Virus record (IMG/VR): IMGVR_UViG_3300027737_000005
Coordinates: 1-41,185 of that record
Length of the DNA stretch: 41,185 bases
DNA from: a virus
Strand: one strand, 5' to 3'
In this document: positions 716 to 26,413 of the stretch, in pieces
Position numbering within the stretch: position 1 is the first letter of the stretch
Layout: every line of letters begins with the position of its first letter
Translations under genes and position numbers: made by a program
Notes under the pieces: model-generated
The model's database searches: none
Seen by the model: only the letters and a program-made list of their open reading frames with translations
Told to the model about the DNA's origin: nothing

Positions 716-2422
716 TCAGTGCTTCTGAGGCATCCTTTGAGATTTAGCTTCAAGCGCCTGTTCGGCCTCCAATACTTCAAATGCTTGCGTAGCGGTCTTA
801 AAATCGCCCTTTCTAAAGGCTTTAACACCAGTCTCCCATGTGAGAGCAAATTGCGGTTTGTCGAGTAAAAACTCGACCATTGTTTTATAGGAACCCTTAG
901 CTAAATCAAAACCAGCTTTCGCATATCCTATCTTAGGGTGCATCACATAAGCGGCCAAAGTACTCAACTTATCTCCAAATCCGGTTTTTGCAGCAACGCG
1001 GAGCATTCTATTGGCTTGTTCTGTGCTAAGTAAGTCTTTGTTAAGCTGTATAAATTGCTTAAAACCCTCAGGGCCTAGCGCGCGTTTAAAAGGAACCGTC
1101 ATCCCTTCCTTATCTAATAACTGCCGTCCCTTTTCGAATCTGATTTTGCCATTAAATATACCATCAATAAACTTATCGATGGCCTCAGCATCCATAATCT
1201 TGGTCCACTGTTCATTGGATGCTTTAAACAGATTTGCGAATTCCGTATTAGGATATTGCTCTTGAATTAGCTCAGCGATAGTCTTATTATAATCTTGAAG
1301 AGATTCGCGCTTTGCTCTATTATAAGCAAAAGACTGTCCTGGCTCATAAACTTCTTTCAAAGCCTTATTATTATTTCTATATTGAGTTACCAAATCTCTT
1401 GCAGTTATATTTTGCGTTGGAGTTTCTTGAATAAACTGCTTTATAAATTTTTTGTGTGCTTTGTCATATTCGGATGGAGTGAAACCGGTGCCCTTTTTTT
1501 GCAATATTCGGCTTACCAAACTTTTCTTTAGAGACGCAGTTGAAATTTGCCCAGGCACCTGATCGGCTAAAAATTCAACATCCCTAAATGATTGTATTGC
1601 CGCATCTTTAAAGGTTTTATCGTTTTTCAGTGCCGAATATGTTTCAGCCATAGGGCTTTCGGCAATGATTTTACCGGCAATTCCTCTAAACTGATCTTCC
1701 ACTTTTGATTCAATTTTGGCTTTTTTCCCTGCTGTTATTTCCTTAGGGGTTGTTATTTTTTCATATTGCCTTGTAGTTAATCCAGATGGTTTTTTTGCTT
1801 TGCCAATAGAAAGTCCTGGCGAGCCCTCCGGCAATCTTTTCAAGATGGCAAATGAACCTATATCAGCAGCTGCTTCTGGAACACCAATCTCTTGAAGAAT
1901 CTGGCTCGTTCCTGCGACACCTGCGCCCAAAACGGGCTTAGGCAATCCCGTTTTTAGTCCTATAAAAGTTCCTGGAGTGGGCGCTAGTTTGGTAGCTGTT
2001 GAACCTAGTCTTAATCCTTTTTGATATCGGTCTTTTGGCTCTAGTGGCACTCCATACTCTTTTTCAATGCCTCTGGCTATATTGGATACAGTTGGAACCA
2101 TTCCTAGTGATTCTTGCAGTCCCTGCATATAGCGTTCCTCATCAAAAGGAATGCCCGCTTTTTCATGAGCCAGTCTAAGTTGTGAAAGGCCTTCAGGGTC
2201 TAATGCCTCCCCCTGAGCAATCATTTGGAATAATCCTGCTGCCATTCCCGGAACTGTAGCTTCTGCTGCACCTTGCGGAATCTGAAGAGCTGTCCGCAAT
2301 GCTCTTTTCCATCCCGACTCTTGAGCTCCGGATTGCTCAGCTCGCTGCTGAAAAATATTGCCCGAAGGCGCTTTATTTTCATAGCCAAGTGCACTGGCTC
2401 TTTTCTCGAATATATTAGCCAT
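716..2422 (-). CDS. virion protein, possible internal/ejection protein (568 aa)
   Basis: Long ORF at the end of the tail/internal-protein operon. Its start overlaps the upstream stop at 2422. No motif recognised. Confidence 0.55.
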   Translation of the reverse strand: MANIFEKRASALGYENKAPSGNIFQQRAEQSGAQESGWKRALRTALQIPQGAAEATVPGMAAGLFQMIAQGEALDPEGLSQLRLAHEKAGIPFDEERYMQGLQESLGMVPTVSNIARGIEKEYGVPLEPKDRYQKGLRLGSTATKLAPTPGTFIGLKTGLPKPVLGAGVAGTSQILQEIGVPEAAADIGSFAILKRLPEGSPGLSIGKAKKPSGLTTRQYEKITTPKEITAGKKAKIESKVEDQFRGIAGKIIAESPMAETYSALKNDKTFKDAAIQSFRDVEFLADQVPGQISTASLKKSLVSRILQKKGTGFTPSEYDKAHKKFIKQFIQETPTQNITARDLVTQYRNNNKALKEVYEPGQSFAYNRAKRESLQDYNKTIAELIQEQYPNTEFANLFKASNEQWTKIMDAEAIDKFIDGIFNGKIRFEKGRQLLDKEGMTVPFKRALGPEGFKQFIQLNKDLLSTEQANRMLRVAAKTGFGDKLSTLAAYVMHPKIGYAKAGFDLAKGSYKTMVEFLLDKPQFALTWETGVKAFRKGDFKTATQAFEVLEAEQALEAKSQRMPQKH

Positions 2423-3672
2423 TAAAATTTATAGCCTTTTTGTTTTGCTATCCTCTCGGCTTTTTTCCAATCTCCTTCTGCTTCTAAGAGAATCTGGTCA
2501 ACAATCTCTCGATCTTCAGGATCGTCTAGATTCAAAGGGATATTCTTTTTATTTTCAGAATCGCGAATAATTGCTTTGTGTTGATCTAAAATCCTATTAA
2601 AAAGATAATTCAATTTAGGCGTTACTCGTTTTTCTACTTCTCTTCTAAACTGTATCGCACTTAGAGATTTCCCTTCCTCTTCGATTTCCGCTGCTGCTTC
2701 TTCCCGGAGAATATCAGCACGTTGCGTCTCCATTTGTGACAAAATAATTTGTTTCTTTTGAGTATCTGTTAAATAAATATCGGGAATCTTTCCTTCCAAG
2801 ATTTCTAATTCCTTAACTCTCGTGGCACCTGAGAAAATCGTTTTTAGATCGCTATAGTTTTGCACCAAGTCAGATTTATAAGCCACTGTCTCCTTCGATA
2901 GAAATCTCTTTCCTAAATTACCAGGAACAGCTTCCAAAAGAGCAGCATAAGAGGGATCATTTAATTTTCCTGTATTTATGCCCTCTATTAATTTTTCTTT
3001 GTTCTGGATCCCACGCCGAGCTATTTCCGCTCTTTCAGAAATCTCTTTTTTTATTGGGGCAACTTCTTGCCTGAGTGCTTCTAGTTTTTTCTCTTCAGAT
3101 TTTCTTTCCGCTTCTGATTTTGTGAACTTAAATTTTTCTTCTTCAAATGAGTGTTTCTTTTCCGCTTTTCTTCGATCAAGTTCCCCTTTAGCGATATTTC
3201 CGATGATCCCAACTTGTCCAGGCTGTCCCGCAAAACCAGCTAATTGTGTCAGATGTTCTGCAGGAATTTGATGCGCAAAGTTTTCTTGATCACCTGCAAT
3301 GTCTTGTTCTCCTCCAAATGACGGAGCTTGTGTTGATCCTCCTGTTAACTTACTAAATAAGGCCTCTTGCCCCTGGAGAGCCTTTAGCTTTTCTTCCGCT
3401 AATCTCTGCTGAGATTGCTGTAAAGGGCTCAGCTGCTGTTTTCCTGCCGACCTTAGACGTTCTACAATGGCTGCTTTTCTGTCTTCAGGAGAAAACCCTA
3501 CAAGATCTCCAAAACCGGCCTTCTCAAGAGCTGCGTTTTCTTTAGTAATTCTAGCACGATCTTCCGCTTTTCCTAATCCTTGAAGAAATCCGGCTCCGGT
3601 GCCCTGTCCAAATCCGGTACCGAATATTTCTCCGAAACTAGGTCGTCTTGGTGGTCGAATAATTTCTACCAT
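2422..3672 (-). CDS. charged coiled-coil virion protein, possible internal protein (416 aa)
   Basis: K/E/Q-rich heptad-like sequence; position after the nozzle-like gene. Confidence 0.55.
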   Translation of the reverse strand: MVEIIRPPRRPSFGEIFGTGFGQGTGAGFLQGLGKAEDRARITKENAALEKAGFGDLVGFSPEDRKAAIVERLRSAGKQQLSPLQQSQQRLAEEKLKALQGQEALFSKLTGGSTQAPSFGGEQDIAGDQENFAHQIPAEHLTQLAGFAGQPGQVGIIGNIAKGELDRRKAEKKHSFEEEKFKFTKSEAERKSEEKKLEALRQEVAPIKKEISERAEIARRGIQNKEKLIEGINTGKLNDPSYAALLEAVPGNLGKRFLSKETVAYKSDLVQNYSDLKTIFSGATRVKELEILEGKIPDIYLTDTQKKQIILSQMETQRADILREEAAAEIEEEGKSLSAIQFRREVEKRVTPKLNYLFNRILDQHKAIIRDSENKKNIPLNLDDPEDREIVDQILLEAEGDWKKAERIAKQKGYKF

Positions 3673-20932: not shown

Positions 20933-21024
20933 GATGTCAACCTCCTTAGTTGTCCTAATGAAATGCAAGCCAGGCGGTAGGAATCCGCTTTTCGAGTGCC
21001 CTCTAGGCTTGTGCAAACATTATA

Positions 21025-23030: not shown

Positions 23031-23117
23031 TGCTTTCCTTTCCTTTCCTGTCCCTTCCTTTCCTTTCCCTTCCTTTCCATTCCCCTTCCTTCTCTCAAAA
23101 TTATCCAAACCTCGAAT
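23022..23117 (-). repeat. polypurine pentamer array copy 2, with the same 5' flank TCGAGGTTTGGATAATTTTGAGAG (here the last codons of terL)
   Basis: Read directly; ends AAAGGAAAGCAATGGTTTTA. Confidence 0.85.
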
Positions 23118-24378
23118 CGAATCGCCCTTGCATATATTTAGTGGGATTATGCTTGTATGGCTGATAAATCGCAACCTTATGGGTTGATAAACAATATCTT
23201 AAACAGTCTACCAAGTGATCATCTTTTTTGATGGGTTTGTCTTCTCCTCGCTCTGCCACTTTCGGATCCCAGCAATAGCCCTCTATCTCTCGTATCAAAT
23301 TGCGGCACTTGCTCAGAATTAGGCATTTTCCCTCTTTTACGTCGGACACCATCCTGTGGATTCCGGGAACGACCTCATTGTTAGCATCTACACAATGCAC
23401 ACCTCGCTTGCCTAGATCATGTCGCAAAGCTGCTGCGCTCGGGTCAATATACACTCCTTTAATCGCATACGGTTCCAAAAACGCAACGATATCATCTGCC
23501 AATTCGCTGACCGCTTTTTCTCTGTTTTTTACCTTGACGTCCCAAAAATACTCATCTTCTACCCACATCTGTTTACCTGTTTGTGTCTGCATTCCTGTCG
23601 ATACCCCTATAAGCACACAAGCGCAGGGATTGGACATCCCATAATCAACGCCCGCTATCCAATAATTGGCACCACAGGGAGGCTCGTCTACTACATAATA
23701 GTCTCGATCCCAAAAATCAAACACGGCGCCCTCCGCCAGGCACCATATACCCAAGTAGTTTCTTTTGTAAAAAAGCCCCGACAAACTATTTGCAAGCATT
23801 TCTTTATAATCCTTAGGTAAGTAAGGATTATCATCGATCATGAATTGCAACGCATAGTATTTAGGATCCCCTTGCTCGGCTAGATCTATTAACCCTTTGA
23901 TCTTATGCGTCGGATGCTTTGGATTCATGCTCGCAAAGCCTATGCTATGAGGCAACCTAAGCCTCGTCAATATCATTTGGAGGACGTTTTCTGGAAACAA
24001 AGTCATCTCATCAGCATAGGCAATACTGATCGTTTTACCTTGTATACGTCCTATCGAGCCTTCGTCTTTTGCTCCTATGACAGTGATCGTTTTATCGAAT
24101 ACTTTGAGCAATCCGTTGCCAGGAAACCACGTGCAGAACGGTTTGTAAATGGCAAATTGCGGTGTTTCGAATATAAGTTTTATACAGTTTTCATATACAG
24201 TTGATGACGAAAACCCAAACATATAGATCTGACTGTCAGGACATTCGTAAACAGCTTGAAGAAAGCGAAATAGCGTAGCTACCGTTTTTCCGCTGCTGAC
24301 AGGGCCGTGAGCAAAATTCCAGCCCTTTGTGCTATTAATTATAAATTCAAGTTGCTTAGGAGAAAAGGGATCTGGCAT
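23101..24378 (-). CDS. terL: terminase large subunit (425 aa from ATG 24378)
   Basis: Walker A GPVSSGKT, Walker B-like ISIAYADE, and a C-terminal nuclease-type region (WIAGVDYG..., DDHLVDCLRY). AGGAAT lies upstream of the ATG. Confidence 0.85.
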   Translation of the reverse strand: MPDPFSPKQLEFIINSTKGWNFAHGPVSSGKTVATLFRFLQAVYECPDSQIYMFGFSSSTVYENCIKLIFETPQFAIYKPFCTWFPGNGLLKVFDKTITVIGAKDEGSIGRIQGKTISIAYADEMTLFPENVLQMILTRLRLPHSIGFASMNPKHPTHKIKGLIDLAEQGDPKYYALQFMIDDNPYLPKDYKEMLANSLSGLFYKRNYLGIWCLAEGAVFDFWDRDYYVVDEPPCGANYWIAGVDYGMSNPCACVLIGVSTGMQTQTGKQMWVEDEYFWDVKVKNREKAVSELADDIVAFLEPYAIKGVYIDPSAAALRHDLGKRGVHCVDANNEVVPGIHRMVSDVKEGKCLILSKCRNLIREIEGYCWDPKVAERGEDKPIKKDDHLVDCLRYCLSTHKVAIYQPYKHNPTKYMQGRFDSRFG

Positions 24379-24390
24379 ATTCCTGATACT

Positions 24391-24768
24391 ATGAGAAACC
24401 GAGCTAAATGTAAACTCTGTTCTAGCATTATTGAAAGCTTCCATCCAACTGACTATGTCGCATGTAAGTGCGGAGAGATATCTGTCAGCGAAGGAGCTGC
24501 AATGCGTTGTGCGGCTCTCAATTGGGACAATTTTCTCCGCGTTGATGACGAAGGTAACGAAATTGTTCCTAATGTTCAGATGGCAGAGGCTGCAATTGTT
24601 CCTAGAGAAACACACTCGAAGCCTACCAAAAAAGAACTTTTAGATATGTTAGAAGAGATGATAAAGAATATAGAACGGCTTCCATCTAATGCGATGGCTC
24701 AGCCTGTGAATCATTATGACTTGGTTTCGGCGCTACTGTTGTTGTCGTCTATCTTCAAAACCGAATAG
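24391..24768 (+). CDS. small zinc-ribbon protein (125 aa) on the opposite strand between terL and the MTase gene
   Basis: MRNRAKCKLCSSIIESFHPTDYVACKCGEISVSEG has the CxxC...CxC pattern common in small phage proteins. ATG lies 12 nt from the terL ATG, and the 3' end overlaps the MTase 3' end by 36 nt. Confidence 0.55.
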   Translation: MRNRAKCKLCSSIIESFHPTDYVACKCGEISVSEGAAMRCAALNWDNFLRVDDEGNEIVPNVQMAEAAIVPRETHSKPTKKELLDMLEEMIKNIERLPSNAMAQPVNHYDLVSALLLLSSIFKTE

Positions 24769-26019
24769 ATCGAGCTCTGGTTCTTTGGCTGCTCTCAGCC
24801 GATTTTCTGCGATTTCGAAGTAATCTTCTGATATCTCAATCCCTACTGCACTTCGCCCAAGTTGCTTTGCTGCGACTATTGTAGTTCCAGAACCTGCAAA
24901 TGGATCTAGCAATACGGCTTCAGGATTAGGCGGCATTATAAGTTTTATGAGATACTGCATGAGGGCGAGAGGTTTGACCGTTGGATGAACTGATGGTTTA
25001 TCAAGCCCCGCATTACGCTCAGCTGAGGAGGCTTTCGCGCAGTAGAAGAAGCGGGATGCACCGCCGGAATCGCCGAATCCTGATTCTTGAGCAAGTATCT
25101 TTAAGCCTTTTGCATATCCAACCCATTCTTTTTTTCTCGAACCTGGCTTTCCACTTTTTAGATTCCCACTCTGCTGGTCGAGTAATTCTGCGGCTTCTTC
25201 ATCCAGAAGGAGATTAGCGGGCCAGCGGCCGGTTAGATTTTCTCCTGTGATTGTTCCGGATGGAATCGCATTTAATTGCTTGCACCCTATCCCACCACTT
25301 CCAAAAGGTCGTGCAAGTGATTCGCTTGTCCCAATCCTACACCCATCAATATTAATGCCAGCTACTCCCCATTTCTCTGCATTCTGGGCAAATGTGCCTT
25401 CGCAGGGCTTCATGGCCATTATAATTATTTCAACTGCCGGCTTTAGAGCAGTTCCGTAACCTTCAAATCCTTTAATGCCATCGCATTTTTCACACGTTCC
25501 CATTCGATTAGTTTGTGTGTTCGATTGTCCGGAAACAGTTCCAGATTCTCGATTGCATTGTTCCTGGTATTGTGATCTTTGTGATGAACCACTTCTATCC
25601 TTTGCAATATCTTGTTGAGGTGTTTGGCCATCACTAATCGATGTTCCATCACATAACCGTCCTTGCGAGCCATTATCCCCAGTACATTTGCAACCAAAAT
25701 TATGACTTTTCGGGAATCCTTGTCCGAAACACCAATAAAGGCAAGTTCTGATTTCCCATCCTGCTTGTTCAAGTGCATTCATAAGATGGTGATGAGTACG
25801 ATCACCTCCAAAAGCTAGTAGATGAGCTCCTGGCTTACAGATGCGAAAAGCTTCTTCCCAGAAGTGTTTGCCAGGAATGCCATGGTCCCAGTCTTTACCC
25901 ATGAAATGAAGGCCATAGGGAGGGTCGGTGATGATGCAGTCAATGGAGTTGGCCGCCATTGTTCGCATGGCTTCGAGGCAATCACCCTTGATTATTTTCT
26001 GTGTCGCTCTTTGGAGCAT
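24733..26019 (-). CDS. DNA methyltransferase, N6/N4 beta-class (428 aa), uninterrupted ORF
   Basis: Motif IV DPPYG comes near the N-terminus, with GFPKS, GTALKPA, GRWPAN and HPTVKP in between, and motif I DPFAGSGTT near the C-terminus. Confidence 0.85.
   Translation of the reverse strand: MLQRATQKIIKGDCLEAMRTMAANSIDCIITDPPYGLHFMGKDWDHGIPGKHFWEEAFRICKPGAHLLAFGGDRTHHHLMNALEQAGWEIRTCLYWCFGQGFPKSHNFGCKCTGDNGSQGRLCDGTSISDGQTPQQDIAKDRSGSSQRSQYQEQCNRESGTVSGQSNTQTNRMGTCEKCDGIKGFEGYGTALKPAVEIIIMAMKPCEGTFAQNAEKWGVAGINIDGCRIGTSESLARPFGSGGIGCKQLNAIPSGTITGENLTGRWPANLLLDEEAAELLDQQSGNLKSGKPGSRKKEWVGYAKGLKILAQESGFGDSGGASRFFYCAKASSAERNAGLDKPSVHPTVKPLALMQYLIKLIMPPNPEAVLLDPFAGSGTTIVAAKQLGRSAVGIEISEDYFEIAENRLRAAKEPELDLFGFEDRRQQQ
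25443..25778 (-). CDS. HNH endonuclease ORF in the +1 frame inside the MTase gene (111 aa from ATG 25778, or 76 aa from ATG 25673)
   Basis: KDGYVMEHRLVMAKHLNKILQRIEVVHHKDHNTRNNAIENLELFPDNRTHKL is a full HNH signature (HH...N...N...H). It coincides exactly with the variable linker of the MTase frame. Confidence 0.6.
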   Translation of the reverse strand: MHLNKQDGKSELAFIGVSDKDSRKVIILVANVLGIMARKDGYVMEHRLVMAKHLNKILQRIEVVHHKDHNTRNNAIENLELFPDNRTHKLIEWERVKNAMALKDLKVTELL

Positions 26020-26413
26020 TTTGAAGGGATCGGAGTTGTTCTAGAACGGCCACTGCTGCTTTCAGCGTTTCGGGTGTTACTTGGGGAGCATCATTGTGAT
26101 CTCTTTGGCCGCATCTTTGTTTACCAAGCCAAATTAACATTGATGCATTTTTTTCTTTTACGCCTAACCAATATTGCGCTTGATGAATTGTTGATTCACC
26201 ATTTTGTTTCTTTTGTTGATTAAAAGCCGTATAAGTCACGGAATTTTCTTGTTCGCATCTTCTATATAAAGTATCGGGTGAAATTCCGAGCTTATCCGCG
26301 ATGTGCGTAGTAAGGCATCCTTGTTCGATCCATTCTCCGACTTGTTTCCAATCGATGCTCGTCTTCGGTCGGCAGTTCTTTCTTTTAGGCTTGATTTCCA
26401 TTTCTGTCTCCAT
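25982..26413 (-). CDS. terS: terminase small subunit (143 aa) with an N-terminal HTH
   Basis: RPKTSIDWKQVGEWIEQGCLTTHIADKLGISPDTLYRRCEQ followed by ...IWLGKQRCGQRD is typical of HTH-type TerS. Located upstream of terL. Confidence 0.6.
   Translation of the reverse strand: METEMEIKPKRKNCRPKTSIDWKQVGEWIEQGCLTTHIADKLGISPDTLYRRCEQENSVTYTAFNQQKKQNGESTIHQAQYWLGVKEKNASMLIWLGKQRCGQRDHNDAPQVTPETLKAAVAVLEQLRSLQNAPKSDTENNQG

Follow-up and report, generated by a model that had tools for sequence, protein, structure and literature searches.

The 41,185-nucleotide stretch of viral DNA analyzed here (IMG/VR record IMGVR_UViG_3300027737_000005, positions 1 to 41,185; referred to below as the window) carries, between a small-terminase-like gene and a large terminase gene, a DNA methyltransferase (methylase) gene in which part of the coding sequence also encodes, one base out of frame, the catalytic core of an HNH endonuclease. 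The features of this locus are as follows.

24733..26019, minus strand: N6_N4 (beta-class) DNA methyltransferase, the host gene; an uninterrupted open reading frame (ORF) of 428 aa
25443..25673, minus strand: HNH catalytic-core remnant in the +1 frame, 76 codons from a conserved internal Met (MARKDGYVMEHRLV...VVHHKDHNTRNNAIENLELFPDNRTHK...) to TAA
25479-25673, minus strand: HNH-homologous part, matching residues 99-163 of the 164-aa HNH of the relative L075 at 90.8% identity (tblastn)
25674..25778, minus strand: first 35 codons of the 111-codon ORF containing the core; an out-of-frame reading of conserved methylase sequence and the 5′ cassette edge
25468..25692, minus strand: cassette remnant in the methylase frame, ~75 codons (C110-G184) between SHNFG and FEGYGTALKPA, with boundaries accurate to ~2 codons
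25672..25677, minus strand: deletion junction GAT/AAT, methylase D115/N116, from nucleotide and protein comparison with L001, L002, L005, L006, L075, and L076
25684..25692, minus strand: 5′ Cys pair C110-K-C112, read in the methylase frame; full-length relatives have it upstream of the HNH start
25483..25494, minus strand: 3′ Cys pair C176-E-K-C179 in the methylase frame, overlapping the dispensable C-terminal HNH tail (last few codons)

The methylase ORF matched the Pfam family PF01555 (N6_N4_Mtase) with E = 2.8e-27 and, as the initial annotation of this DNA had read it, is uninterrupted; the DPPYG and DPFAGSGTT motifs occupy residues 32-36 and 372-380, and M18 (position 25968) provides an alternative start. 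The 111-codon ORF at 25443..25778 (minus strand) lies in the methylase +1 frame, as had been described, and matched PF13392 (HNH_3) with E = 1.6e-7 and 31.2 bits against a cut-off of 24.8. Its TAA stop (25443-25445) falls within the codons of the conserved methylase motif GTALKPA, in agreement with the remark that the HNH frame ends where conserved methylase sequence resumes. The same annotation took this ORF for a complete HNH nuclease, which it is not: homology is confined to 25479-25673, and when the window and seven relatives were translated in three frames, the first 35 codons proved not to be HNH sequence. No second HNH copy was found in the window by tblastn with the full-length L075 HNH. 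Read in the methylase frame, the stretch with the HNH core gives 77 residues that are mostly G, S, Q, T, and D, with six Cys and hydrophobic residues nearly absent, which fits the low-complexity, Cys-containing sequence noted at the outset. This hydrophilic peptide is predicted to be disordered and matched no Pfam family; in an AlphaFold2 model of the methylase, the block-mean confidence score (pLDDT) was 36-47 across residues 101-170 and 62 at residues 171-180, compared with >90 for the core outside the insert.

Methylase homologues number in the thousands. Among the best 120, the linker from GFPKS to GTALKPA comprised 9 aa (HNHFGxEGY) in ~75 and 14 aa in 11, whereas ~22 carried an insert of 166-236 aa at this exact site, with the methylase frame open in every case; forms of the linker with and without the HNH sequence thus both occur. 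In the insert-bearing relatives for which DNA was compared (seven), the +1 frame encodes an HNH protein of ~165-180 aa, and full-length +1 HNH ORFs at the same methylase site were identified in L001, L002, L005, L006, L075, and L076. The +1 frame of these relatives is accordingly not riddled with stops beside a conserved linker, an outcome that would have spoken against the initial proposal. The full-length proteins share a layout of their own ATG ~30 nt into the insert, a CxxC...CxxxC zinc finger, an NPAWKGG motif, and a C-terminal core with the consensus ...MARKDGYVMEHRLVMAKHLxRILQRxEVVHHKDHNTRNNxIENLELFPDNRTHK.... An ATG with an A/T-rich leader, directly after the 5′ cassette edge, is conserved in 6/6 full-length relatives examined; in the L075 allele, the expected HNH start is the ATG within ...TATAACCATGAAAAA.

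Compared with these relatives, the window lacks ~95-150 codons at its junction, comprising the HNH start codon, the CxxC...CxxxC zinc finger, and the NPAWKGG motif, so that about 98 of 164 HNH residues (~the first 60%) are missing. The deletion is in frame for the methylase and HNH reading frames alike. In an alignment of 59 HNH sequences, residues E10, H11, R12, H31, N39, and N43 were invariant and H53 nearly so, and the window keeps all of them; the Met at 25673 was also nearly invariant in the family. A still shorter remnant, L074/P0020, is reduced to KDHNTRNNAIENLELF, without the catalytic His pair, and P0015 is a second short cassette remnant. The alleles form a deletion series from full length, through the window (core only), to L074/P0020, and the methylase frame is intact at every step.

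The relation between the two frames was examined by scanning IMG/VR with the full-length HNH, which returned 68 loci. By the convention used here, the host frame lies two bases downstream of the HNH frame, hence HNH at host +1. At all 37 loci with HNH identity of at least 44%, the host frame was open through the HNH and beyond, over 386-896 codons, with the shortest spans ending at contig ends; the more distant HNHs (L041-L067 and L069) had no such open frame and are free-standing. Stop codons were absent from the host frame of the nested copies (0/4557 codons, 32 related loci), compared with 336/4557 in the other alternative frame of the same copies and 187/2047 (9.1%) in the host-equivalent frame of the free-standing relatives. 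At 9.1% stops per codon, 77 open codons would be expected with p ~6e-4 and 160 open codons with p ~2e-7, so the overlap is not due to chance, as had been argued from the window alone. For a gap-free 183-nt core shared by seven sequences, the numbers of variable columns at HNH codon positions 1, 2, and 3 were 20, 8, and 49 of 61 each, and the ratio of nonsynonymous to synonymous substitution rates (dN/dS) was 0.01-0.09 in the HNH frame but 1.6-13 in the methylase frame. These values demonstrate that the HNH frame is constrained, whereas the methylase-frame peptide is a passenger that is only kept open. Five HNH third positions, in His/Asn/Asp codons preceding AA-, are invariably C, where T would create TAA in the methylase frame; these bases show how the methylase frame stays free of stops. 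The initial annotation had offered either dual coding or capture of an HNH gene as a linker with the methylase frame left open. The second alternative holds, with the amendment that the window copy is 5′-truncated rather than a complete gene.

In a neighbor-joining tree of 60 methylases, constructed with the insert columns excluded, the cassette-bearing alleles were scattered among empty ones. The nearest methylase relatives of the window, P0023 (71.9% identity) and P0014, have an empty site: the empty allele P0023/L084 reads SHNHFGLPGYGTALKPA, and the window reads SHNFG[CKC...IKG]FEGYGTALKPA. Besides the P0023 type (SHNHFGLPGYG), empty alleles of an HNFGKK..W.GY type occur. Such a disjunct distribution of alleles is the pattern that would be expected of a homing element.

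The cysteine residues of the methylase-frame peptide depart from the general lack of constraint. The codons for Cys123, Cys176, and Cys179 each begin with a T that occupies a third codon position of the HNH frame, in one case a four-fold degenerate Arg site, and all three T bases were invariant in 7/7 sequences even though 49/61 (80%) of the third positions vary. Among the intein-free cassettes, the 3′ CxxC was detected by script in 15/18, and the 5′ CxC in 11 by script and by eye in L028 and L035, where it is placed further upstream. The paired CxC...CxxC was found in no intein-hosted cassette. An intein-free cassette at another methylase site, upstream of GSGFPKS (L030), also has the Cys pair, and the pairs therefore seem to travel with the cassette. 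The Cys quartet may form a zinc-ribbon-like clamp that ties the loop ends together.

Members of the same HNH clade are also hosted by inteins. At 11 IMG/VR loci (L008, L011, L013, L020, L021, L025-L027, L029, L031, and L037) and in L073 (LR756508.1, a 484-kb uncultured phage), the HNH lies +1 out of frame inside a Hint intein of the methylase, at the site VYG/CLSEDTEILT...GAFVARRNGKIFITGN/SGFPKS, where it occupies the place in which an in-frame endonuclease domain normally would sit. These intein-hosted inserts measure 285-347 aa. Their site and splicing blocks are shared with the published intein in methylase gp65 of the mycobacteriophage ShiLan (BLASTP E = 3e-14 and 3e-5), which carries a LAGLIDADG endonuclease, whereas the inteins of the related methylases carry the out-of-frame HNH. 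Pfam missed the Hint domain in the L008 and L029 methylase inteins, which BLASTP against the ShiLan gp65 intein detected. The large terminase (terL) genes of two further IMG/VR loci, L068 and L070, contain an intein (GFG/CVPP...THN/C; Pfam PT-HINT/Intein_splicing on L068) that nests a distant HNH relative (27% identity) out of frame with the host frame open. At a separate IMG/VR locus (L071, ~3001-3204), an 802-codon DNA polymerase I-like ORF runs without a stop through a short sequence resembling the HNH (34% identity), which has the same frame relation to it; the host frame contains the motif ESRLEGR that is typical of the cassettes. The polymerase gene may here hold what is left of a cassette without an intein.

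No such splicing element was apparent in the window. Rfam detected no group I or group II intron anywhere in it, either at the gathering score or at E<=1; the suggested mobilization of introns in trans by the HNH therefore has no detected substrate. A tblastn search with the intein of the related methylases found no Hint blocks in the window, and the insert of ~75 aa, ending ...IKG/FEGY, lacks the features of a splicing intein (blocks A, B, F, and G; a terminal (H)N; and Cys, Ser, or Thr at +1). With no Hint domain present, the insert stays in the mature methylase.

Proteins annotated in databases as small HNHs (62-75 aa) begin at MARKDGYV, the start of the core consensus. Three of these for which contigs were retrieved all adjoin methylase fragments, and in L077 (2177-2722 within 1888-3561) and L080 (138-641 within 41-1441) they are gene-caller pieces of a nested full-length HNH. 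We rejected these entries as proof that the core exists on its own, because ORF listings of L077 and L080 show whole methylase ORFs around them; many small HNH_3 database entries that start with MARKDGYV are probably artifacts of this type. For L077, L080, P0183, and P0185, gene callers yield an artificial HNH of 62-111 aa and a C-terminal half-methylase, missing both full-length genes.

We consider the window stretch to be, most probably, a decaying remnant of a hidden HNH cassette within an intact methylase gene. According to this interpretation, an HNH homing-endonuclease gene would have invaded a surface loop of the methylase, between GFPKSHNFG and GYGTALKPA, without an intron or intein. 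The intact cassette would supply an HNH_3 enzyme of ~165-180 aa from its own ATG ~30 nt into the insert, one base off the methylase frame, and its DNA has been purged of methylase-frame stops, such that the methylase would be made as a single polypeptide with a hydrophilic, disordered loop whose ends may be joined by the CxC...CxxC quartet at its base. The endonuclease presumably cuts cassette-free methylase alleles of co-infecting phages, with repair copying the cassette into them. In the window, the in-frame deletion took the start codon and the presumed DNA-binding part of the HNH gene while the methylase was kept, and the 76-codon core left behind has most likely ceased to work as a homing enzyme in its own right. 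A bolder version, which we regard as possible though tentative, is that the clade has evolved a splice-free life in essential-looking genes, its sequence being held free of stops in one alternative frame such that any host could translate across it, with the clamp serving as a "structural splice" outside inteins, and alternates between intein-hosted (methylase and terL) and clamp-hosted (methylase, at two sites) forms; in addition, the window core might still be expressed and active.

Several observations weigh against the interpretation as a decaying homing cassette. The window core is still an open frame with conserved catalytic residues, and 6-7 of 10 window-specific substitutions are synonymous in the HNH frame; either the deletion is recent or the core is still under selection, and the deletion cannot be dated by polymorphism because all database copies of this phage are identical. 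The neighbor-joining tree is poorly resolved, and the HNH synonymous sites are saturated (dS >=1), such that recent horizontal transfer is not demonstrable from divergence alone; with these two properties of the data, homing is a process that we infer. The zinc clamp lacks structural support, with pLDDT values of ~62 at C176/C179 and low values at C110/C112, and at such low confidence for the insert the AlphaFold2 model neither supports nor refutes it. A Foldseek search of the PDB with a model of the 76-aa core returned I-HmuI as the top match, which was not significant (E = 1.5), and a PDB sequence search with the full-length HNH gave nothing meaningful. The layout of the locus, its frame relation, the selection pattern, the truncation, and the scattered distribution are demonstrated, and homing, internal initiation, zinc binding, and the loss of function in the window are inferred.

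The first two of these points would also suit a different explanation, in which the HNH core (76 or 111 aa) is still expressed from the ATG at 25673 or 25778 as a useful small nuclease, which might for example nick DNA, assist terminase, or rely on the methylase for DNA binding. The retained family-invariant residues, the near-invariant Met 25673, the confident AlphaFold2 fold of the 76-aa core (pLDDT 88.6), and the location of the gene between terS and terL are compatible with this possibility. The start region, zinc finger, and NPAWKGG motif are nevertheless gone, the apparently stand-alone HNHs of 62-75 aa were gene-caller fragments in the loci examined, and the residual sequence of L074 is near-identical despite loss of the catalytic His pair, so conservation in a remnant is no proof of function. 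A role in assisting terminase, which the initial annotation had raised, finds no backing in the relatives of this HNH_3-type protein: they are nested in methylase genes or inteins and not beside terminases, and the host methylase of L001 is not terminase-adjacent, so the terS/terL position appears to belong to the methylase gene. On balance, a working core in the window is unlikely. The fusion of the methylase N-terminal domain to the HNH core by a programmed +1 frameshift, also proposed initially, is highly improbable. Because no stop interrupts the +1 frame between 25778 and the core, a shift anywhere in residues 81-115 would yield the fusion, but inspection by eye noticed no conserved slippery or stall motif at the junction, where no systematic search was made; we found nothing that supports it. 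Given the conserved ATG and A/T-rich leader just past the 5′ cassette edge of the full-length relatives, internal initiation accounts most simply for the enzyme without any need for a frameshift fusion, and in the intein-hosted relatives a shift would join the HNH to half an intein.

Other explanations concern the host protein or the data. Removal of the insert before the methylase acts, by way of an unrecognized intron, an intein, or translational bypass, could be imagined given that related HNHs reside inside true inteins of other methylases and terL and that the insert begins with Cys. It has very little to recommend it when set against the negative Rfam and Hint searches, an insert of 75 codons that is shorter than those hosted by inteins, and the complete absence of stops in 4557 host-frame codons, which would serve no purpose in an insert that is spliced out of the RNA or bypassed; the published analysis of the ShiLan element was likewise negative (PMC11855218). 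It is also quite improbable that the methylase-frame peptide is a real functional domain, such as a DNA-recognition zinc ribbon, to which the HNH similarity is secondary. The conservation of the methylase-frame Cys codons against HNH degeneracy and the CxC...CxxC of most intein-free cassettes would agree with such a domain; beyond the Cys residues and the absence of stops, however, the methylase frame is unconstrained (dN/dS >1, versus the low HNH values), the peptide has no Pfam match and low pLDDT, and most homologues have a mere 9-aa linker at the site. An assembly or sequencing artifact, in which a 1-nt error hides an in-frame HNH or a split methylase, had prior plausibility alone in its favor. 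The DNA is identical at the nucleotide level in three other independently assembled samples, the exact protein occurs on 20 contigs, and the same frame relation recurs in >30 diverged loci; a sequencing frameshift is thereby excluded, and the chance of an artifact is negligible.

Phage HNH homing endonucleases such as I-HmuI, mobE within nrdA of phage Aeh1, and mobA with the T4 gene 60 bypass likewise target conserved phage genes, but they are located in introns, split the host gene, or need ribosomal bypass, whereas the host frame in the window reads straight through. Terminase-associated HNH proteins (HK97 gp74-like) differ in being encoded by a stand-alone PF01844-type gene beside terS/terL, while the only HNH match to Pfam in the window is HNH_3. 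The closest known counterpart is the domain in the mycobacteriophage ShiLan methylase gp65 (earlier work: Gosselin et al. 2023, PMC9957025), identified as an out-of-frame HNH by Arsenault, Gosselin & Gogarten 2025 (Genes 16:178, PMC11855218), who reported that it contains no methylase-frame stop and neither an intron nor an intein, that its in-frame product is disordered, and that its distribution is disjunct. ShiLan gp65 belongs to the same methylase family as the window protein, with the shared motifs DPPYG, GFPKS, GTALKP, and DPF.GSG aligning, and the two hidden HNHs are distant homologues (27-30% identity, E down to 6e-8). Both systems combine a stop-free insert with an alternative-frame HNH that contains zinc fingers (the window copy has lost its own), a disordered product, and a disjunct distribution. 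They are not orthologous elements in the same site and frame: the ShiLan insertion follows GTALKPSYEP and has its HNH at host +2, whereas that of the window family lies between HNFG and GYGTALKPA with its HNH at host +1. ShiLan duplicates ~11 aa of the flanking strand, whereas the window-family insert is bracketed by CxC...CxxC; and the ShiLan element occurs in mycobacteriophages with a GTG or leaderless start, whereas the window family occurs in uncultured phages with partly A/T-rich leaders that lack a Shine-Dalgarno (SD) sequence. The window copy is also truncated, with its own start codon and DNA-binding regions gone, unlike the ShiLan element and the six relatives with full-length HNH ORFs, which are complete.

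Out-of-frame or antisense endonucleases have also been described in inteins (Gosselin et al. 2025, bioRxiv 10.1101/2025.01.02.630785), including a cyanobacterial dnaX intein (bioRxiv 10.64898/2026.09.14.751524), and these works cite Gorbalenya 1998 for such arrangements. In these, as in the window family, the host frame is open and unconstrained, with an inflated dN/dS, and the dN/dS of the endonuclease frame is low; a Hint splicing domain, however, is missing from the window. Endonucleases published as lying out of frame in inteins are of the EndoVII-like or LAGLIDADG type rather than HNH_3, and an out-of-frame HNH_3 within an intein was not among the published architectures consulted for this comparison.

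The genes that flank the methylase are as follows.

25982..26413, minus strand: small-terminase-like gene with a helix-turn-helix (HTH), upstream, its 3′ end overlapping the methylase start (ORF list; weak PF02796 HTH_7 match, E = 4.7e-4)
23101..24330, minus strand: large terminase gene, downstream of the methylase (PF03237 Terminase_6N, E = 6.2e-13; the domain starts at Met 24330)

The terL frame (23101-24615, minus strand) remains open for ~95 codons 5′ of Met 24330, a stretch that overlaps an opposite-strand DUF7695 ORF and is probably noncoding. The DUF7695 ORF (PF24749, E = 2.3e-11) is located between terL and the methylase at 24391-24768 (plus strand) and shares 36 nt with the 3′ end of the latter; independent assemblies annotate an 88-aa gene here. 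The sole Rfam match above the gathering score in the window was an int-alpA RNA (RF02996) at 20944-21013 (minus strand; 41.3 bits, E = 2.6e-5). The GC content of the window is 42%. Four confirmed starts (26019 and 25968 of the methylase, 26413 of terS, and 27562 of a further ORF) have leaders that lack an SD sequence and are partly A/T-rich, which suggests a host that initiates translation without SD pairing. The initial annotation was correct that neither candidate HNH ATG has a convincing SD sequence, but this absence is uninformative because the confirmed starts lack one as well. Among 50,697 phage records, neither a blastn search with the methylase gene nor a tblastn search with the HNH remnant found a close cultured relative.

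A hidden out-of-frame HNH in a phage methylase is of a kind already published for ShiLan; at the level of the family, the novelty consists of a second insertion site and frame, the Cys residues bracketing the insert, the occurrence of intein-hosted and intein-free forms in alternation, and the series of decay stages. Because gene callers split the nested loci into a false mini-HNH and half a methylase, such elements are systematically mis-annotated. Homing endonuclease genes have been thought to persist in conserved genes by hiding in introns or inteins, and the 2025 ShiLan report added out-of-frame read-through as a third route for a handful of mycobacteriophages. The occurrence of at least 37 such loci in IMG/VR and of inserts in ~22 of the 120 closest methylase homologues suggests that this read-through route is widespread in uncultured phages, and the window family connects those forms of one endonuclease clade that are hosted by inteins with those that do without them.

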